Shown piece after piece: positions 319 to 32,030 of a stretch of DNA of 32,030 nt. Within the stretch, counting starts at the first letter, position 1. Each line of letters opens with the position of its first letter. The notes under the pieces are model-generated. The model saw only the letters and a program-made list of their open reading frames with translations. It made no database searches and was not told where the DNA came from. The stretch lies in IMG/VR virus record IMGVR_UViG_2778261510_000008. One strand, given 5' to 3'. The position numbers and the translations under genes were made by a program. Source of the stretch: a virus (taxonomy: Duplodnaviria; Heunggongvirae; Uroviricota; Caudoviricetes).

Positions 319-477
319 GAATATTTTTTGGTAAGCGTCAAATATGCGCGTTCTGGCTGTGCGTAGCCGGAACCTGTGGGAGCACGATGCCGATAAGTGA
401 AAGGCATCGTGCTATGAAGGAGGATTCTATCGATGTGGTCAATGGAAGACGGTTACCAGAGATAGGGCTTATGCATA

Positions 478-504
478 AAAAAATAAGCCCGTGTAAGGGA
501 GATT
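478..504. repeat. attL core: 27-bp direct repeat aaaaaataagcccgtgtaagggagatt shared with attR
   Basis: Identical 27-mer at 478..504 and 30498..30524 bracketing the phage gene set; matches the recalled P2 att core. Confidence 0.85.
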
Positions 505-583
505 TAGGGTGTCACCAGTAGGGGCTTTCAACGGTACAATGCGGGTTTGAGCGGCATAAATTACCACTGAAAGCCCTTAAACG

Positions 584-1597
584 TTACTCTACTGTGGACA
601 CTATGTGGACACTCTCGGCCTCAGTACCACCTCTTAGCGGATTAAGAGAAATGGCGTCCTGAAGGTACTCTGGCGCAAAATGAGCGTAAACCATAGTTTG
701 CTCAATCCGCGTGTGACCTAGTATCCGTTGTAGCGTGATAATACTTCCTCCATTAATCATGAAATGAGTGGCAAAGCTGTGCCTTAGTGCATGTGTGGCT
801 TGCCCCATTGGCAAATCCGGTTTTATTGCTTTCATTGTTCGTCTGAAGCGAGGGTAATCAGCATCAGGGAATAAAAAACCTCGTTTGTTATCCGCGATCA
901 TTTTGGCAACAGCCTCTGAGATCGGGACGGTGCGTGGTTTGTTTGTTTTCGTTTTAACAAACGTGACGCGGTTATGGATGATATTTTCTGCTTTCAAACG
1001 AGCTGCTTCTCCCCAACGTGCTCCAGTACTCAGGCAAAGAATCGCAATCTTTTTGTTGTCGCCGTCAAGAGCAGCAAGCAGTAAGGCAATTTCTTCCTGC
1101 GTGAGATAGCCTGTGTCTGGTTTTTCCTCCTTAAGCCTTTTTGTCCCTCTGATAGGGTGCTCACCAAAGAATAACTCCGCTTCAATCAGGGCTGTAAACA
1201 TGCCGCTAATACATGTTAAATCACGATTGATACTCGAAGGTTTAATACCCTGACTTCTTCGGGTGGCGCAGTACTGGCTGATAAGCGATTTCGTAATTTG
1301 AAATGCGCATGGGTCATTCGTTATTTTTGTGAAGATTTCAATTTTTCCAAGATTAGATTTCCCATGCTCTTCGTGTTTACCCTTTAAATCCCACCAGATC
1401 TGTGTCAGCTCCGACAGACGTCGCTTGTCTGTTGGTTTTGATAGCCATTCTTTATTGTGGTGGTTGTACAACGTGTATTTCTCGAAAGCGACAGCTTCGC
1501 TTTTCTTATCAAACTTCCTACGGATGCGTTTTCCATTACGTCCAGTAGGGCGGATGTCCACTTCATATCGACCATCATCGAGTTTTTTGATTGCCAT
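584..1597 (-). CDS. int: Tyrosine integrase, P2 Int-like
   Basis: 337-aa ORF next to att core; C-terminal H-x-x-R...Y catalytic region (HALRHSFATH ... TMVYAHF); SD ggaggg upstream of ATG. Confidence 0.9.
   Translation of the reverse strand: MAIKKLDDGRYEVDIRPTGRNGKRIRRKFDKKSEAVAFEKYTLYNHHNKEWLSKPTDKRRLSELTQIWWDLKGKHEEHGKSNLGKIEIFTKITNDPCAFQITKSLISQYCATRRSQGIKPSSINRDLTCISGMFTALIEAELFFGEHPIRGTKRLKEEKPDTGYLTQEEIALLLAALDGDNKKIAILCLSTGARWGEAARLKAENIIHNRVTFVKTKTNKPRTVPISEAVAKMIADNKRGFLFPDADYPRFRRTMKAIKPDLPMGQATHALRHSFATHFMINGGSIITLQRILGHTRIEQTMVYAHFAPEYLQDAISLNPLRGGTEAESVHIVSTVE
593..612. promoter_or_regulatory. Tandem direct repeats TGTGGACAC (593..601 and 604..612), candidate Int arm-type binding sites in the P' arm
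   Basis: Two perfect 9-mers with 11-bp period, inside the 3' end of int and ~90 bp from the att core; related TGTGG(T/A)C pair at 30449..30467 on the other arm. Confidence 0.5.
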
Positions 1598-1712
1598 CAG
1601 AAAACCCTCCGAGTGGTATGTTTTTTTGCGACTACTAATCGCTTTTTTCGTGGTGGCTGAAATTTAGCCACCAATAGTAGGCACTTGTGATGAATATATT
1701 CACGATGAATTG

Positions 1713-2012
1713 TTAACCAGTCTTTTGACCGGAGTGGGGCGACGTTGTTTCGTTTTGCCCAAAGTGTGCGAGAGCGGGCGCAATTTGCCCGGACTCAGGA
1801 GCGATCTGATTGGTCATGAACCATAAAGTGTATTTGGTGAATTGTGGGGTCTGCAGGATGTTCATCATGACATCTGTTGGAGGTGTTGAACGACCACTTT
1901 CATAGTAACTCAGCGTGCCATACGGAACCCCTGTTAAATCAGCAAGTTGTTGTCTGCTCAAATACTCTGATTTTCGCATTAAGACTATCTTCTCGCTTAT
2001 CGTGTTTGACAT
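1713..2012 (-). CDS. C: Immunity repressor, P2 C-like
   Basis: 99-aa ORF with HTH segment (LSRQQLADLTGVPYGTLSYYE), divergent from cox, same size and position as P2 C. Confidence 0.85.
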   Translation of the reverse strand: MSNTISEKIVLMRKSEYLSRQQLADLTGVPYGTLSYYESGRSTPPTDVMMNILQTPQFTKYTLWFMTNQIAPESGQIAPALAHFGQNETTSPHSGQKTG

Positions 2013-2112
2013 GGTGTTTAGATCTCAATAGTATTTAGTTTAGATGTAGATTGTTTAGTGCTTGGATGTGGGCACTAAAAGGCATTATAAGACATTAAAC
2101 GCAATTCATGAG
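2006..2112. promoter_or_regulatory. Lysogeny/lysis switch: candidate Pe (-35 TTGACA 2006..2011, -10 TAGTAT 2029..2034, + strand), operator direct repeats GTTTAGAT (2016..2023, 2038..2045; third GTTTAG at 2053), candidate Pc -10 TATAAT on - strand (2084..2089)
   Basis: Hexamers with 17-bp spacing; operator half-sites as direct repeats flanking the Pe -10, the arrangement known for P2 C repressor; face-to-face promoters give overlapping transcripts. Confidence 0.6.
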
Positions 2113-2126
2113 GGCTAGAGGACGAC

Positions 2127-2402
2127 ATGAGCAAGCAAGTAACACTCATGACTGATGCGATTCCTTATCAGGAGTTCGCAAAACTAATAGGAAAATCGAC
2201 AGGAGCGGTTCGTCGGATGATTGATAAAGGAAAGCTGCCTGTAATTGATATGACCGATCCACAATCAGCTTCAGGTCGTGCAGGTGAATATTGGGTATAC
2301 CTTCCGGCATGGAATAACGGACTAAAACTGGCTTATGAAAGCCGCCCTAAAGAGATTCGTGACGGCTGGTTGATGTGGTTAGGTCTCGGTGAACCACGTT
2401 AA
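2127..2402 (+). CDS. cox: Cox-like excisionase / Pc repressor
   Basis: 91-aa ORF, first gene of the early operon, divergent from C; size and position as P2 Cox. Confidence 0.8.
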   Translation: MSKQVTLMTDAIPYQEFAKLIGKSTGAVRRMIDKGKLPVIDMTDPQSASGRAGEYWVYLPAWNNGLKLAYESRPKEIRDGWLMWLGLGEPR

Positions 2403-2412
2403 GGAGAACCGT

Positions 2413-2583
2413 ATGAATGAGCCTCGTTGTATTGCTCAGTTACTGCGTAACGAAAGCCCCAGGGCGATTGACTTCACCATCACCCACGGTAAGGGGCGTA
2501 AGGGAATCATTATCCGCACCAAAAAACAGAGTCCGTTAAAAAAGGCTCTGACCTTTCTGAAAAGCCGGAGGGTATGGAAATGA
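2413..2583 (+). CDS. Small early-operon hypothetical protein (P2 orf78 position)
   Basis: ORF 2389..2583; ATG at 2413 preceded by AAGGAG at good spacing; basic small protein. Confidence 0.45.
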   Translation: MNEPRCIAQLLRNESPRAIDFTITHGKGRKGIIIRTKKQSPLKKALTFLKSRRVWK

Positions 2584-3080
2584 CAGTGATGACGCTCAAT
2601 CTCGTTGAAAAACAGCCAGCAGCTATGCGCCGGATAATTGGTAAGCATCTTGCCGTTCCTCGCTGGCAGGATACATGTGATTATTATAATCAGATGATGG
2701 AGCGCGAACGGTTAACGGTTTGCTTTCATGCGCAGTTAAAACAGCGTCACGCAACGATGCGTTTTGAAGAAATGAACGACATCGAACGTGAACGGCTGGT
2801 TTGTGCAATTGATGAATTGCGTGGGGCATTCTCAAAACGCCGTCAGGTTGGCGCAAGTGAGTATGCATATATTAGTTTTTTAACAGTCAGTCAGCGTCGT
2901 ACTTTATTTATGCATGCCGGATTGACTGAAAAAGAATTCAACCAGCCATACTGGCGAATTAATGAAGAATCATGTTACTGGCGTGATGCTTTATTCCGTG
3001 CATTACGTGAATTATTCAGTCTGTTTGAGTATGCACCGACAATTCTGACGTCGGTAAAACCAGAGCAATATCTGCATTAA
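2580..3080 (+). CDS. B: Replication protein B-like (helicase-loader role in P2)
   Basis: 166-aa ORF between cox and A; size, position and recalled N-terminus MTVMTLNLVEKQ as P2 B. Confidence 0.75.
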   Translation: MTVMTLNLVEKQPAAMRRIIGKHLAVPRWQDTCDYYNQMMERERLTVCFHAQLKQRHATMRFEEMNDIERERLVCAIDELRGAFSKRRQVGASEYAYISFLTVSQRRTLFMHAGLTEKEFNQPYWRINEESCYWRDALFRALRELFSLFEYAPTILTSVKPEQYLH

Positions 3081-3143
3081 GTAATTAACCAGAGTTTTTA
3101 ACGCACTTAATTGTGCGGGGCTTCTTTTTGCCTGGAGAAAGTC

Positions 3144-3368
3144 ATGCATACAGTTTCTGAAAATCAGTGCGGTAAATACGCATTACTGCTGCAACAGGCC
3201 AGAACCGAAGCACAGGCCGACGCAGCGACGCGCTTTTCTTCTCATCTTGACGCCATGATTCGCCACATCACAAAGGCGGAGTTATCCCGCGTGGAGATAG
3301 TCGAGCTGCTCAGTCAGGAGTCGGAAAAATTTCACAATATCGGATTGTCTCGCGGGGAGGTGCTTTGA
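3144..3368 (+). CDS. Small early hypothetical protein (P2 orf80 position); start ambiguous (3111 or 3144)
   Basis: ORF 3111..3368; ATG at 3144 has GGAG upstream. Confidence 0.45.
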
Positions 3369-3670
3369 TGTCCTGTTCTCGTTCAGTTGTATTACTGAAT
3401 AACGCCTTAAAAATCGCCGTTATGAAAAATGGCGATTTATCTCTTATTCAACTTGGTCTTGATAAAGAAAAACGCGAAATAACTGAGTCTGTTATCGCGA
3501 TTTATCAGAACGAATTAAATCTCCTGTCTGATGTGGTCAATTTACTTGTTAAACGCGCTGTATTTCACAAGCAAATCTCCTCCGTGGACGAACTGACGAA
3601 ATTAACGACAGAAATTGCCAGCTATTGCGCTGATGAATTTAAAAAACTTAACGACAAAAGGAGCTGGTAA
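3368..3670 (+). CDS. Small early hypothetical protein (P2 orf81 position)
   Basis: ORF overlapping neighbours by a few nt (coupled early operon); ATG at 3368 after ggggagg. Confidence 0.5.
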   Translation: MSCSRSVVLLNNALKIAVMKNGDLSLIQLGLDKEKREITESVIAIYQNELNLLSDVVNLLVKRAVFHKQISSVDELTKLTTEIASYCADEFKKLNDKRSW

Positions 3671-4166: not shown

Positions 4167-6420
4167 AGCCTCCGGGCGTTTTGTCCCTCCGTCAGCATTT
4201 GCCGCAGGCACCGGTAAGACGTTTACCGGTGCTTATGCATGGAACGCGCCACGCGAGGCTGTCGGGCGCGAAAGACCCCTTACACGTGACGAGATGCGTC
4301 AGGTGCAAGGTGTTTTATCCACGATTAATCGCCTGCCTTACTTTTTGCGCTCGCTGTTTACTTCACGCTATGACTACATCCGGCGCAATAAAAGCCCGGT
4401 GCACGGGTTTTATTTCCTCACATCCACTTTTCAGCGTCGTTTATGGCCGCGCATTGAGCGCGTTAATCAGCGCCATGAAATGAACACCGACGCGTCGTTG
4501 CTGTTTCTGGCAGAGCGTGACCACTATGCGCGCCTGCCTGGAATGAATGACAAGGAGCTGAAAAAGTTTGCCGCCCGTATCTCATCGCAGCTTTTCATAA
4601 TGTATGAGGAACTCTGCGATGCCTGGGTGGATGCGCATGGCGAGAAAGAATCGCTGTTTACGGATGAGGCGCAGGCTCACCTGTATGGTCATGTTGCTGG
4701 CGCTGCACGTGCTTTCAATATTTCCCCGCTCTACTGGAAAAAATACCGTAAAGGGCAGATGACCACGAGGCAGGCATATTCTGCCATTGCCCGTCTGTTT
4801 AACGATGAATGGTGGACTCATCAGCTTAAAGGCCAGCGTATGCGCTGGCATGAGGCGTTACTGATTGCTGTCGGGGAGGTCAATAAAGACCGTTCTCCTT
4901 ATGCCAGTAAACATGCCATTCGTGATGTGCGTGCGCGCCGCCAGGCAAATCTGGAATTTCTTAAATCGTGTGACCTTGAAAACAGGGAAACCGGCGAGCG
5001 CATCGACCTTATCAGTAAGGTGATGGGCAGTATTTCTAATCCAGAAATTCGCCGGATGGAGCTGATGAACACCATCGCCGGTATTGAGCGTTACGCTGCC
5101 GCAGAGGGTGATGTGGGGATGTTTATCACGCTGACCGCGCCGTCAAAGTATCACCCAACACGTCAGGTCAGAAAAGGCGAAAGCAAAACCGTCCAGCTAA
5201 ATCACGGCTGGAATGATGAGGCATTTAATCCAAAGGATGCGCAGCGTTATCTCTGCCGTATCTGGAGCCTGATGCGCACGGCATTCAAGGATAATGATTT
5301 ACAGGCCTACGGTTTGCGTGTTGTTGAACCACACCACGACGGAACGCCGCACTGGCATATGATGCTTTTTTGTAATCCACGCCAGCGTAACCAGATTATT
5401 GAAATCATGCGTCGCTATGCGCTCAAAGAGGATGGCGACGAAAGAGGAGCCGCGAGAAACCGTTTTCAGGCAAAACACCTTAACCGGGGCGGTGCTGCGG
5501 GATATATCGCGAAATACATCTCAAAAAACATCGACGGCTATGCACTGGATGGTCAGCTCGATAATGATACCGGTAGGCCGCTGAAAGACACAGCTGCGGC
5601 TGTTACCGCATGGGCGTCAACGTGGCGCATTCCGCAATTTAAAACGGTTGGTCTGCCGACAATGGGGGCTTACCGTGAACTACGCAAATTGCCTCGTGGC
5701 GTCAGCATTGCTGATGAGTTTGACGAGCGCGTCGAGGCTGCACGCGCCGCTGCAGACAGTGGTGATTTTGCGTTGTATATCAGCGCGCAGGGCGGGGCAA
5801 ATGTCCCGCGCGATTGTCAGACTGTCAGGGTCGCCCGTAGCCCGTCGGATGACGTTAACGAGTACGAGGAAGAAGTCGAGAGAGTGGTCGGCATTTACGC
5901 GCCGCATCTCGGCGCGCGTCATATTCATATCACCAGAACGACGGACTGGCGCATTGTTCCGAAAGTGCCGGTCGTTGAGCCTTTGACTTTAAAAAGCGGC
6001 ATCGCCGCGCCTCGGAGTCCTGTCAATAACTGTGGAAAGCTCACCGGTGGTGATCCTTCGTTACCGGCTCCCACACCTTCTGAGCACGCCGCAGCAGTGC
6101 TAAATCTGGTTGATGACGGTGTTATCGAATGGAATGACCCGGAGGTCGTGAGGACGCTCAGGGGCGCATTAAAACACGGGCTGAGAACGCCAAGTCATCA
6201 GCAAAGAAACGGAAGCCCATTAAAACCGCATGAAATAGCGCCATCGGCCAGACTGACCCGGTCGGAACGAATGCAAATTACCCGTATCCGCGTTGACCTT
6301 GCTCAGAACGGTATCAGGCCTCAGCGATGGGAGCTTGAGGCGCTGGCGCGTGGCGCGACCGTAAATTACGACGGGAAAAAATTTAGGTATTTTATAGTTA
6401 ATGAGTGGCCTATTTTCTAG
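4156..6420 (+). CDS. A: Replication initiation protein A (rolling-circle nickase), P2 gpA-like
   Basis: ~754-aa ORF; ATG at 4156 (MAVKASGRF...) inside the longer TTG-initiated ORF 4114..6420; size and position as P2 A. Confidence 0.9.
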   Translation: MAVKASGRFVPPSAFAAGTGKTFTGAYAWNAPREAVGRERPLTRDEMRQVQGVLSTINRLPYFLRSLFTSRYDYIRRNKSPVHGFYFLTSTFQRRLWPRIERVNQRHEMNTDASLLFLAERDHYARLPGMNDKELKKFAARISSQLFIMYEELCDAWVDAHGEKESLFTDEAQAHLYGHVAGAARAFNISPLYWKKYRKGQMTTRQAYSAIARLFNDEWWTHQLKGQRMRWHEALLIAVGEVNKDRSPYASKHAIRDVRARRQANLEFLKSCDLENRETGERIDLISKVMGSISNPEIRRMELMNTIAGIERYAAAEGDVGMFITLTAPSKYHPTRQVRKGESKTVQLNHGWNDEAFNPKDAQRYLCRIWSLMRTAFKDNDLQAYGLRVVEPHHDGTPHWHMMLFCNPRQRNQIIEIMRRYALKEDGDERGAARNRFQAKHLNRGGAAGYIAKYISKNIDGYALDGQLDNDTGRPLKDTAAAVTAWASTWRIPQFKTVGLPTMGAYRELRKLPRGVSIADEFDERVEAARAAADSGDFALYISAQGGANVPRDCQTVRVARSPSDDVNEYEEEVERVVGIYAPHLGARHIHITRTTDWRIVPKVPVVEPLTLKSGIAAPRSPVNNCGKLTGGDPSLPAPTPSEHAAAVLNLVDDGVIEWNDPEVVRTLRGALKHGLRTPSHQQRNGSPLKPHEIAPSARLTRSERMQITRIRVDLAQNGIRPQRWELEALARGATVNYDGKKFRYFIVNEWPIF

Positions 6421-6464
6421 GCTACCATTAATGTCGGGTTTAGATAATGCAATAATTTATTGGC

Positions 6465-6500
6465 AAGGTCTTCAGATTTAACTAAAGACCTTGTGTTTTA
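6465..6500. terminator. Candidate bidirectional hairpin between convergent genes A and the island gene
   Basis: 8-bp inverted repeat aaggtctt / aagacctt (6465..6472, 6485..6492) followed by T-rich gtgttttaattgtttt. Confidence 0.4.
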
Positions 6501-6540
6501 ATTGTTTTCTAGTCTTTTATATGAGCGTAAGTCTATGGGG

Positions 6541-8412
6541 TTACTGTGGTGGAGTCCATATTTTTAATGCGATATTTTTATATGTTTCCCCGCGTGCTGT
6601 AATAGCATTGGCGTTGAATTCAACATATTCTTCAAGATTGATATCGTTATTTGCAGATAAGAATCTTACCAGCTCAGGGTTGTTTTGATAAAAGTTTGCG
6701 CATAATGTCTGGCAAAGAACGTTTTCACCGCTATATACTGTTTTCTTTTCTGAGTACAACTTATCATTTAATGATCTGTTTCTTGAACGGGGAAGCAATA
6801 TCAAACCACCAATCAAGTTTCTCTTCTGCTTGTATTCAGTGTCAGATGAAAAACCGAAGGCTGATGAAGGCATGGTTGTATCATCAATTACTTCGCGAAG
6901 AACATGTTCTATATCAAAAGTTTTCATACCTTTGTCGCGTTGCATATAAACATCAAACCCTACTTTGTTTGTTAGGTTTATCTCGTTTTCAATGTAAGAG
7001 GCGATACGAGCCAGAATATAAAGCATATCTGATCTGGTTTTATTCTCGTACGCCATTTCTGGTATTCTATTAAGTAATGTATAATGCTTGTCCCATTCGT
7101 TTTGGACATAGCTTAACAATGCTGGATAATCTTTCCCTCTAACATCTTTAGCTAAGCTGAATGCAATATCTTTTAAATTGTCATAAGTGTTTGCTTTCTT
7201 CGATACGATTCGACTGGTGAGAATTAGATCAATATACTTAGATATTATTTGGATTTTTTTCTTACGAACATCACGGGTATCTGATAAATCTACAGAAGAT
7301 AGAATTATCATGGTTTGAAAGTTGAATTTTCTAATTCCATTATAGAAAACGTCAGGGTAATCAGTAGTCAGATTTTTCTCAGCATTGGCAATTGTCAAGC
7401 ATAAATTTGCATACTCGGGTATATCTGTTTTTGCAAAGTTATAAAAATCATCGGAAGTAATCAGACCGATATCATGGGTTTTATCTTCAAACCACCGATG
7501 ATAAGAATCATTGATTTTATCAAAATCACCAGGTGCATCGCCTTTATTTTTACCTCTAATAGTGTTTGCCCATTTAGCGCGTAATAAATTCCTGATAAAT
7601 AGAGAATCTCCCTCTGGATCTTTGTCTCTAAGTTTAGACATGGTTTTTACCCATACCTGATGGCATTCTTGACTATCTTCGGGGCTAGTGATTTTTGACA
7701 GAATAAAACCTTTTAATAGTTCAATTGCACCGAGTCTCAAGCCACGGTCATTCATTGTGACAAATACTCTATGCGCTTCTGACTCGCTTGAGACGGATAT
7801 ATCTATTAAAAGAACTTTTTCCATTAAATAATCAATAAAGAAAGAAACTTTTTCTTTTATTGTTGGATCCAAAGCATCCTCAATGGATTTTATTGCCTCA
7901 ATTATTCTTTTATCGCTATCACTAAGATTAGTAATGCTATCTACATCATCTAGTGCGTCTGCAAGACATTTTGCGTTGTCAGTATATTTTGTGAATATTT
8001 CTTTTCTAACTTCGGAAAATTCAATATTGAAATCGCGTTCCCCATAAGAAACACTCCCAATAAAATTTTCTAAAGCCAAAGTGTCTGGAATGTGGTTATC
8101 CTTGATATATCTTTCAAAAAAAACAAGAAGAATAAATATAGACGTGATTCGTTGTTGTCCATCAATCAACGGGCGCTTACCGTTGGTTTCAACCGCCGTA
8201 ATGATAGAACCAAGAAAGTATGGAGGATAAGATGATACATCGCGTCTACCATGAGTAGACTCATAACTCAGTAAGAAAGCATTTTGAATGTCATTTAACA
8301 TTTCAAGAAAATGCCTGCTTTCCCATTTATAATCCCTCTGAAAATATGGTAGTGAGTACTTGCTTTGAAAGCAGGTTTTTAAACTTAGAGTCGATGGGGT
8401 TATATACGCCAT
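6541..8412 (-). CDS. DUF262 (ParB-like, DGQQR motif) + DUF1524-like (His-Me finger) protein; candidate GmrSD-like type IV restriction / anti-phage defence protein in the P2 tin/old hotspot
   Basis: Long ORF 6541..8466; N-terminal motifs YFQRDYKW and LIDGQQRITS; C-terminal FDIEHVL ... NLIGGLILLPRSRNRSLNDK; AT-rich codon usage unlike the phage backbone; ATG at 8412 has AAGGA SD, ATG at 8466 has none. Confidence 0.6.
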   Translation of the reverse strand: MAYITPSTLSLKTCFQSKYSLPYFQRDYKWESRHFLEMLNDIQNAFLLSYESTHGRRDVSSYPPYFLGSIITAVETNGKRPLIDGQQRITSIFILLVFFERYIKDNHIPDTLALENFIGSVSYGERDFNIEFSEVRKEIFTKYTDNAKCLADALDDVDSITNLSDSDKRIIEAIKSIEDALDPTIKEKVSFFIDYLMEKVLLIDISVSSESEAHRVFVTMNDRGLRLGAIELLKGFILSKITSPEDSQECHQVWVKTMSKLRDKDPEGDSLFIRNLLRAKWANTIRGKNKGDAPGDFDKINDSYHRWFEDKTHDIGLITSDDFYNFAKTDIPEYANLCLTIANAEKNLTTDYPDVFYNGIRKFNFQTMIILSSVDLSDTRDVRKKKIQIISKYIDLILTSRIVSKKANTYDNLKDIAFSLAKDVRGKDYPALLSYVQNEWDKHYTLLNRIPEMAYENKTRSDMLYILARIASYIENEINLTNKVGFDVYMQRDKGMKTFDIEHVLREVIDDTTMPSSAFGFSSDTEYKQKRNLIGGLILLPRSRNRSLNDKLYSEKKTVYSGENVLCQTLCANFYQNNPELVRFLSANNDINLEEYVEFNANAITARGETYKNIALKIWTPPQ

Positions 8413-30177: not shown

Positions 30178-30396
30178 ATGTTTCATTGTCCTTTATGCCA
30201 GCATGCCGCACATGCGCGTACAAGCCGCTATATCACTGACACGACAAAAGAGCGTTATCACCAGTGTCAGAACGTGAATTGCAGCGCCACGTTCATCACT
30301 TATGAGTCGGTACAGCGATACATCGTGAAGCCGGGAGAAGTCCACGCCGTAAGACCGCACCCGTTGCCGTCAGGGCAGCAAATTATGTGGATGTAA
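30178..30396 (+). CDS. ogr: Late gene transcription activator Ogr (zinc finger)
   Basis: 72 aa from ATG at 30178 (MFHCPLCQH...); cysteine pairs CPLC and CQNVNC; last phage gene before attR. Confidence 0.85.
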   Translation: MFHCPLCQHAAHARTSRYITDTTKERYHQCQNVNCSATFITYESVQRYIVKPGEVHAVRPHPLPSGQQIMWM

Positions 30397-30417
30397 TTAC
30401 AAACAGGAAGCCCCTCA

Positions 30418-30443
30418 GTCGAGGGGCTTTTTTGTCGATGTGG
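30418..30443 (+). terminator. Rho-independent terminator after ogr
   Basis: aagcccctc-agtc-gaggggctt hairpin followed by a T-run. Confidence 0.75.
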
Positions 30444-30497
30444 TCAATGTGTGGACGTGACCAGAAATAAATCCTTTTATTTCATTGTATTACGCGT

Positions 30498-30524
30498 AAA
30501 AAATAAGCCCGTGTAAGGGAGATT
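30498..30524. repeat. attR core, 27-bp direct repeat of attL
   Basis: Identical to 478..504; overlaps the 3' terminator end of cyaR. Confidence 0.85.
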
Positions 30525-30584
30525 ACACAGGCTAAGGAGGTGGTTCCTGGTACAGCTAGCATTTTATGGGTTATGTTTTTCAGC
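30498..30584 (-). ncRNA. cyaR: CyaR (RyeE) Hfq-dependent sRNA; its 3' end is the P2 integration target
   Basis: Minus-strand sequence GCTGAAAAACATAACCCATAAAATGCTAGCTGTACCAGGAACCACCTCCTTAGCC... ending in a hairpin plus U-run matches recalled CyaR; candidate -10 (30592..30597) and CRP-like site TGTGA-N6-TCTAA (30619..30634) upstream. Confidence 0.75.
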
Positions 30585-30668
30585 GAAACGGATGATAACC
30601 TTAATAAATGCAGCTGTATGTGATCGGTTTCTAAGAATTTTCCATCCGGGAAAAATAATCGAAATTAA

Positions 30669-32030
30669 TCACTTACCGTGGGGATTACGCGTGGTTTCCC
30701 CGGAGAAATTACGCATCAGCAGCGCGTAATTGAGCTCAAGATCCTGCGGGACCGGGAGCCACACAGTATAACCATCGCCTGGTGCTATCGGCATAGCTTC
30801 GCCTTTGGCGTTTTCCATGTGCTCAAGGGTAAAATTAATGTTGCCTTGCGGCGTCATCAGCTCAAGGCTGTCGCCAACGGAGAATTTATTTTTCACCGCT
30901 ACCGCCGCGAGGTCCCCCTTGCGCTCACCGGTAAACTCACCAACAAACTGCTGGCGGTCAGAAACTGAATAACCGTATTCGTAGTTCTGATAATCGTCGT
31001 GAGTATGACGACGCAGGAAACCTTCGGTATAGCCACGATGCGCCAGACCTTCCAGAGTTTCCAGCAGGCTGGTATCGAACGGTTTTCCCGCAGCGGCGTC
31101 ATCGATAGCTTTGCGGTAAACCTGTGCGGTGCGTGCACAATAGTAGAAAGATTTGGTACGACCTTCGATTTTCAGCGAATGCACGCCCATTTTGGTCAGG
31201 CGTTCTACATGGGCGATGGCGCGCAGATCTTTCGAGTTCATGATGTAAGTGCCGTGCTCATCTTCAAACGCGGTCATATACTCGCCCGGACGCTGGGCCT
31301 CTTCGATCATAAACACTTTGTCGGTTGGTGCGCCGATACCCAGCGTCGGCTCAACATTTTGCACCGGAATCGGCTCGTACTTGTGTACGATGTTGCCAAC
31401 ATCATCTTCTTTCCCTTCCTGGACGTTGTACTCCCAGCGGCAGGCGTTGGTGCAGGTGCCCTGGTTCGGGTCGCGCTTGTTGATATAGCCAGAGAGCAGG
31501 CAGCGACCGGAGTAGGCCATGCACAGCGCGCCGTGAACGAAGATCTCGATCTCCATATCCGGCACCTGATTGCGGATCTCTTCAATCTCTTCCAGCGACA
31601 GCTCGCGAGAGAGGATCACGCGGGTCAGGCCCATTTGCTGCCAGAATTTCACCGTCGCCCAGTTCACGGCGTTAGCCTGCACCGAAAGGTGGATCGGCAT
31701 TTCAGGGAAGTGCTCACGCACCAGCATAATCAGCCCTGGATCGGACATAATCAGCGCATCCGGCCCCATTTCCACCACCGGTTTCAGGTCACGGATAAAG
31801 GTTTTCAGCTTGGCGTTGTGCGGTGCAATGTTGACCACGACATAAAACTTTTTCCCCAGCGCGTGGGCTTCATTGATGCCGAGCTGAAGATTTTCGTGGT
31901 TGAATTCGTTGTTGCGCACACGCAGGGAATAACGCGGCTGGCCCGCATAAACAGCATCTGCGCCATAAGCGAAAGCGTAACGCATATTTTTCAGCGTTCC
32001 CGCCGGGGAAAGGAGTTCCGGTTTAAACAT
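30669..32030 (-). CDS. yegQ: Peptidase U32-family protein YegQ (complete; start codon at the window edge)
   Basis: 453-aa ORF MFKPELLSPAGTLKNMRYAFAYGADAVYAG... recalled as E. coli YegQ; lies beyond cyaR outside the prophage. Confidence 0.75.
   Translation of the reverse strand: MFKPELLSPAGTLKNMRYAFAYGADAVYAGQPRYSLRVRNNEFNHENLQLGINEAHALGKKFYVVVNIAPHNAKLKTFIRDLKPVVEMGPDALIMSDPGLIMLVREHFPEMPIHLSVQANAVNWATVKFWQQMGLTRVILSRELSLEEIEEIRNQVPDMEIEIFVHGALCMAYSGRCLLSGYINKRDPNQGTCTNACRWEYNVQEGKEDDVGNIVHKYEPIPVQNVEPTLGIGAPTDKVFMIEEAQRPGEYMTAFEDEHGTYIMNSKDLRAIAHVERLTKMGVHSLKIEGRTKSFYYCARTAQVYRKAIDDAAAGKPFDTSLLETLEGLAHRGYTEGFLRRHTHDDYQNYEYGYSVSDRQQFVGEFTGERKGDLAAVAVKNKFSVGDSLELMTPQGNINFTLEHMENAKGEAMPIAPGDGYTVWLPVPQDLELNYALLMRNFSGETTRNPHGK

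Follow-up and report, generated by a model that had tools for sequence, protein, structure and literature searches.

Host DNA beside the P2-type attachment site in the cyaR terminator is probably a decayed arm of an earlier P2-like prophage

Why does the host DNA to the left of a P2-like prophage resemble the right arm of the phage? This question is raised by a 32,030 nt stretch of DNA (the window; IMG/VR record IMGVR_UViG_2778261510_000008), whose ends coincide with the start codon of yegR on the left and the start codon of yegQ on the right. The original prediction offered two answers. Either the bacterial attachment site naturally shares arm homology with attP, or the flank represents what erosion has left of the right end of an earlier P2-family element, which would imply repeated use of the site.

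The resident prophage of ~30 kb lies between two copies of a 27-nt core, AAAAAATAAGCCCGTGTAAGGGAGATT, which has the same sequence as the P2 attP core. The attL copy is located at 478-504 and the attR copy at 30498-30524, both on the + strand. The attR copy corresponds to the 3’ half of the terminator of cyaR (RyeE), an sRNA gene on the - strand (30501-30586; Rfam RF00112, 100.7 bits, E = 4e-21), which is followed by the right-hand host gene yegQ (30669-32030, - strand). To the right of attL, the P’ arm of the prophage (505-611, + strand) was recognised from the P2 annotation. It comprises the Cox-site region and two arm-type repeats TGTGGACA at 593-600 and 604-611, and the int ORF lies 3’ of it on the - strand. 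The right end consists of ogr (30178-30396, identified by tblastn with OgrK and the P2 annotation), the intrinsic terminator of ogr and the F operon (30408-30433, hairpin and T run, -19.2 kcal/mol) and an intact P arm (30435-30497), all on the + strand. This P arm is 95-100% identical to the annotated P2 attP region. Its Int arm footprint (30435-30462) contains TGTGGTCA and TGTGGACG, whereupon the IHF site follows.

The window contains exactly two copies of the 15-mer TCGATGTGGTCAATG, at 430-444 and 30435-30449, both on the + strand. The sharing of this 15-mer by flank and phage arm had been noticed before, with the second copy placed 10 nt too high (30445-30459). There is no third copy even if 2 mismatches are allowed. 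At ≤2 mismatches 0.05 chance matches are expected in the window, and two were reached in 0/100 shuffles. Both copies lie left of a core, at a distance of 33 nt in the flank versus 48 nt in the phage arm. Moreover, the bases after the 15-mer are loosely similar, as had been suggested. Without gaps the similarity covers 40 nt at 75% (425-464 and 30430-30469); with two 1-nt gaps it spans 36 nt, and beyond ~36-40 nt it is weak up to the 27-nt core. With the cores left out, 319-477 and the phage arm align best locally over 430-464 and 30435-30469, at a score of 38 (shuffle maximum 26, 0/2000), and the segment right of the 15-mer is significant alone (16/2000 shuffles).

The P2 GenBank record AF063097 gives the 15-mer a meaning. 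It represents the first 15 of the 28 nt of the Int ‘P arm’ footprint TCGATGTGGTCAATGTGTGGACGTGACC, which is annotated, together with the subsequent IHF site, in the interval from the ogr terminator to the core. Of two direct arm-type repeats, the first lies within the 15-mer. In the flank this repeat, TGTGGTCA at 434-441, is intact, is the same as in P2 and fits the arm-type consensus tgTGGaCa (PMC3448106). The second repeat (445-452, + strand) is degraded and reads GAAGACGG versus TGTGGACG, with 2/8 matches in a gapless comparison and 5/7 with a 1-nt shift. The IHF region (453-477, + strand) is degraded as well: the AAATAAATCC-TTTTATTTCA module is reduced to ACCAGAGATAGGGCTTAT..GCAT and is ~15 nt shorter than its phage counterpart. 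A 17-mer, TATCGATGTGGTCAATG, is common to the flank and other prophage arms. Most E. coli lineages carry GGTGACCAG at the site where the window has GGTTACCAG, and GGTGACCAG is nearer to the phage sequence GTGACCAG. The same segment contains a strong Shine-Dalgarno-like AAGGAGG (416-422) located 10 nt 5’ of an ATG at 433. The resulting ORF of 10 codons (MWSMEDGYQR, stop at 463-465) overlaps the fossil arm repeat and is probably without meaning.

Two hairpins, neither of them assigned to a strand, separate yegR from the arm-like segment. Hairpin 1 (350-373) has the stems GTTCTGGCT and AGCCGGAAC, an energy of -16.3 kcal/mol and z = -2.5. It is absent from the original prediction and is kept in E. 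coli and in a locus of a divergent Escherichia (L111). Hairpin 2 (381-413), a G+C-rich stem-loop, indeed shows the perfect 11-bp stem described for it (381-391/403-413), with a loop of 11 nt, -21.1 kcal/mol and z = -4.9. According to the alignment it is conserved in E. coli, the stem being retained and the loop variable. The few stem changes are not clearly compensatory, and the hairpin is missing from L111.

Hairpin 2 had been called terminator-like and likened in position to the ogr terminator of the phage arm, a correspondence that is not supported. No T/U tract follows its stem on either strand (the next bases are ATGAAGGAGG on the + strand and CCCACAGG on the - strand), a promoter/terminator scan of 1-700 returned 0 terminators, and an Rfam search of the same region at E ≤ 1 found no family. 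Sequence similarity is lacking, too: the flank left of the 15-mer, hairpins included, aligns to the 3’ end of ogr and its terminator with a local score of 14 (shuffle mean 14.5, 1335/2000 shuffles as good). Hairpin 2 ends 16 nt before the 15-mer; the T run of the phage terminator ends 1 nt before its own. The sequence after yegR homologues in other species forms hairpins unrelated to those of the window. The hairpins are no counterpart of the ogr terminator.

The region 319-477 is present in 5366/5426 complete E. coli genomes, with the K-12 copy being 100% identical. A synthetic empty-site query (flank, core and cyaR) is found contiguously, as one piece, in most genomes. Strain Y5 matches it at 100% with the order yegS-yegR-yegQ and no prophage. 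A flank unchanged in prophage-free strains and resembling a phage arm in nothing but the 15-mer had been named as the finding that would speak against a phage relation. The flank is indeed unchanged in such strains, but its similarity to the phage arm exceeds the 15-mer, and a partner junction is found beside yegS (see below).

A pristine yegS-cyaR junction was found in 0/5426 E. coli genomes; the inserted arrangement is fixed in the species. In 1273 genomes a P2-type P arm is joined to cyaR. The younger K-12-type remnant junction is seen in 356 of those, and ~900 more are without it. By subtraction from the empty-site count, ~4200 genomes are empty. The repeated use of the site implied by the original prediction is evident from these counts. 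In K-12 itself the flank is succeeded by a partial core of 19 nt; then come a truncated D, ogrK and a complete P arm, which adjoins the core and cyaR. We take this element with ogrK and the truncated D (yegZ) to be the known, textbook cryptic P2 remnant. Since it lies right of the flank, it is no explanation of the flank sequence. The core, as part of the cyaR terminator stem, is polymorphic, with GCCCGTG in the window and K-12 and GCCTGCG in L134, ATCC 11775, APEC O1 and others. The latter form is two positions off the P2 core, so that these strains offer an imperfect core to P2.

Other species show the site without the inserted DNA. Species-representative genomes were scanned with a cyaR 21-mer, yielding at least 120 loci. 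The 120 loci listed were classed by yegS distance and alignment score, which replaced a cruder regex classification. The yegS start is located ≤260 nt from cyaR in 61 of the 120 loci listed, including Escherichia sp. E1V33 and Citrobacter. Within these 61 loci no P-arm similarity was found (scores ≤18, versus 38 for the E. coli flank with the same scoring). Intact or decayed P2-type P arms abut the cyaR terminator in ~20 of the 120 loci listed. In many other Enterobacteriaceae and one Escherichia lineage yegS is directly next to the cyaR terminator, i.e. the att core, and in E. coli ~0.8 kb of AT-rich DNA with yegR intervenes. The divergent Escherichia locus L111 is arranged like that of E. 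coli: yegS, the ancestral arm, another 18/27 core and yegR. Its P arm is missing the first repeat and has a much better kept IHF part, GTAACCAGAAACAAATCTTTTAATTCAATTGGTTACGTAT. E. albertii retains the second repeat and the IHF part. The 3-way alignment with these two arms, the pairwise alignments and the P2 GenBank annotation of the Int P arm and the IHF site form the basis for assigning 425-477 as a P arm.

The other end of the inserted DNA lies outside the window, beside yegS, and was read from six E. coli genomes other than the window strain, among them K-12. In these six the ancestral yegS-side arm right after yegS aligns with that of E1V33 at a score of 114 (shuffle maximum 31). It stops exactly at the expected core start. 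Next comes AAAAAGTCAGTTCAAGTATGGAGGATT, which matches the core at 18/27 positions, and then P’-arm-like sequence. Comparing K-12 (L001, 1865-1979) with the window (478-592) in a position-anchored manner, 71/106 positions are identical (score 12, shuffle mean -20.6, sd 4.7, 0/5000); the P’ part alone reaches 1/5000 shuffles. Without anchoring, the K-12 attL-side region aligns weakly to the phage in a local comparison (126/2000), and the similarity is convincing only when position-anchored.

The inserted segment comprises ~0.8 kb with a G+C content of 38.9%, as compared to 49.7% for yegS and 54.1% for yegQ, and carries in this order yegR, the two hairpins and the decayed P arm. Fragments of int, ogr or D were not found in it, the best tblastn hit of the resident Int against the relic having E = 0.14. 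When a phage collection was searched by blastn, using either 319-477 or the entire relic, and by tblastn, using YegR, nothing but ON470606 and AY639599 was retrieved, both of which are records including host flank. ON470606.1 (vB_EcoM-720R8) holds yegR and the relic within its ‘phage’ record, and AY639599.1 (‘Phage TP’) corresponds to the K-12-type yegR-ogr-yegQ region.

The gene yegR (1-318, + strand, 36.5% GC) is a small lipoprotein-like orphan gene of 105 aa, and YegR of K-12 is 100% identical. A search of a local copy of Pfam with YegR gave no match. YegR matches the PHROG family phrog_21109, and we suspect that this family stems from host flank in phage and prophage records. Homologues of yegR with 46-83% identity occur at unrelated loci in other enterobacteria, often with a second small lipoprotein gene after them. 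Among the contexts of these distant homologues none is at cyaR and none in a P2-like prophage. Since the homologues elsewhere are not phage-associated, the cassette may have entered independently of a phage. It might have ridden in with the element or have been added to the relic later. E. coli ZJ3920 (L136) and L111 carry an extra 170-200 nt between the yegR stop and hairpin 1. In ZJ3920 ~120 nt after yegR belong to a second lipoprotein gene, with N-terminal similarity of 40% over 37 aa (E = 3e-6). As the extra 170-200 nt are missing from the window, the window type bears a further deletion.

Taken together, it is very likely that 425-477 represents the decayed P arm of an attR left by an ancient P2-like prophage, which had integrated in the cyaR terminator of an E. 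coli ancestor. We propose the following course. After integration of the P2-like prophage, internal deletions and mutation would have shrunk it to ~0.8 kb of AT-rich DNA. Read in window orientation, the relic would consist of a decayed core and a decayed P’ arm beside yegS, the yegR cassette, the two hairpins, the decayed P arm and the intact core. A single P2-like element would be behind both ends. The attR core would have been kept intact because it is the cyaR terminator. With the relic fixed in E. coli, its surviving core would be the attB of present P2-type phages at cyaR, which we take to be locI, the classical site of P2 in its traditional host E. coli C, and the prophage of the window would be a later integration into the old scar. 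Both answers given to the initial question then hold in effect: attB has arm homology to attP because attB is the eroded attR of an earlier P2-family element. Against a relic count the lack of any remaining phage gene, the position of the decayed attL beyond the window, the weakness of the unanchored attL-side alignment, the poor preservation of the second repeat and the IHF site, the non-phage setting of the yegR homologues, and the perfect survival of 15-17 nt.

The latter point is somewhat unexpected under neutral decay, given that ~33% divergence surrounds the 15-17 nt. The intact repeat might hence have been kept since it is still bound by the N-terminal domain of P2-type integrases, in which case attB would be partly ‘complex’ and would favour integration there or modulate excision from attL. 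In line with this, the 15-mer and the 17-mer are perfect while the adjacent second repeat and the IHF region are degraded, and the 15-mer with its repeat is invariant in six good-quality E. coli lineages. However, only ~8% of alignment columns are variable among the E. coli sequences, and we estimate from the alignment that an invariant 15-mer would arise among the sampled E. coli by chance ~30% of the time. Moreover, host DNA is not obviously selected to aid a phage, L111 does without the repeat, and a single repeat lacking its partner and the IHF site, located 15 nt nearer to the core, would be unlikely to assemble an intasome. We thus regard such a retained function as quite improbable. That a P2-type integrase still binds the repeat in the B arm, and that the preferred P2 site is a recycled attR with residual arm function and not a simple attB, likewise seems unlikely to us. 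If true, the residual arm function would have a share in site preference or in the balance of integration and excision. The site would then be blocked by a complete P arm such as that of the K-12 remnant; P2 is not known to use the cyaR site in K-12. The fossil arm is most likely neutral and presumably without present function.

The transfer might also have taken the reverse direction, with the host sequence being original and an ancestor of P2 acquiring its P arm by aberrant excision. The sequence common to host and phage, in the same orientation beside the core, is symmetric as to direction. The distribution among phages is not. The P2-type module (terminator, TCGATGTGG.. repeat pair, AAATAAATCC-TTTTATTTCA) adjoins ogr in Wphi, fiAA91-ss and R18C, all of which have a different core, and the same terminator/repeat-pair/IHF module lies beside ogr in more distant P2-like phages of Klebsiella, Enterobacter and Yersinia. 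As the module is present in phages with other cores, the motif is a phage feature and was not copied from the cyaR host locus. In addition, the repeat also matches the P’ arm repeats, and relatives with the ancestral yegS-cyaR junction are without it. The reverse direction is therefore strongly disfavoured.

With an identical 15-mer in a prophage 30 kb away, one may further think of a recent scar, left in the window strain by the resident prophage or its immediate predecessor through gene conversion or imprecise excision; this is refuted by the flank being 100% identical in K-12 and the prophage-free strain Y5 and present in nearly all E. coli genomes (numbers above), leaving it a negligible probability. 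A chance resemblance, for which only the shortness of the match speaks, is practically excluded by the expectation of 0.05 matches, 0/2000 shuffles, the collinearity with the core and the independent partner junction.

A decayed P2-type attR accounts for the phage-like look of host DNA beside a textbook phage attachment site and assigns the uncharacterised E. coli gene yegR to relic DNA of horizontal origin. The terminator of a single sRNA gene then bears P2-family elements of three generations, namely the ancient relic, the remnant of K-12 type and live prophages. For practical purposes, the flank misleads prophage-boundary callers and phage databases, as the two ‘phage’ records carrying host flank illustrate.

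The cyaR terminator has been occupied in other species as well. In Escherichia albertii NBRC 107761 (L062, locus coordinates ~5000-7560) a decayed P2-type P arm, consisting of the second repeat and the IHF part, abuts the cyaR terminator. ORFs of 258 and 269 aa, located ~0.9 kb from this arm, are presumably cdtA- and cdtB-like. Genes for cytolethal distending toxin thus appear to reside in a P2-type relic at the cyaR hot spot of E. albertii. In Salmonella enterica subsp. diarizonae (L058, locus coordinates ~610-3575) an island of 2.9 kb with 37.9% G+C lies between yegS and cyaR. It contains a 358-aa ORF which we assume to encode an SseK/NleB-like effector. On its cyaR side decayed P-arm-like sequence (TTAATGTGGTCAATATTTAGATGTGG...) is observed; on the yegS side of this island no decayed core was seen. 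These two cases, each with cargo beside a decayed P arm (cdtAB in E. albertii, the SseK-like gene in S. diarizonae), suggest that P2-like phages repeatedly delivered cargo at cyaR and then decayed. For Typhimurium, cyaR is listed between yegQ and STM2137 (PMC2515195). Several Enterobacter loci (e.g. L016, L052, L082, L084) exhibit a different insertion of ~0.5 kb between yegS and cyaR, with the yegS start 671 nt from the cyaR pattern. Coding-looking sequence extends up to the core in these loci, a non-P2-looking occupant of the spot.

Barreiro & Haggard-Ljungquist are said to have described the cryptic P2 remnant of K-12 and sequenced locI (J Bacteriol 1992). Our literature search, with this 1992 locI paper outside its range, found no mention of arm homology in this attB flank or of the flank and yegR as an older P2-type relic. 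The remnant of K-12 and the old relic have in common a P2-family right end at the cyaR terminator, a P arm abutting the 27-nt core and an internal deletion that keeps attR. In contrast to the old relic, the K-12 remnant is young and near-identical to P2, still has ogr, a portion of D and the complete P arm, shows a 19-nt partial core as its left junction, occurs in 356/5426 genomes and sits right of the old relic. The latter has lost all phage genes, is ~33% diverged at its ends and is found in essentially all E. coli. Compared to the P arm of P2 attP, the flank is identical over 15 nt in the first repeat region and has the same orientation and side of the core. It differs from P2 in having a degraded second repeat, little left of the IHF inverted repeat and a distance to the core of 33 nt, not 48 nt.

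The 3’ ends of tRNA, tmRNA and sRNA genes are established integration hot spots, where islands are found layered or in tandem and prophages have left scars. Prophage scars at small-RNA genes are already known as a kind. The relic described here is a piece of genome history, a classic integration site being a recycled prophage scar, and not a new mechanism. As in other layered islands, new elements keep entering at the 3’ end of a small RNA gene, and old ones decay while the RNA gene terminator, here the core, is preserved. Unlike in layered islands generally, the old scar supplies the flank of an attB in current use, and three generations are readable at one site.
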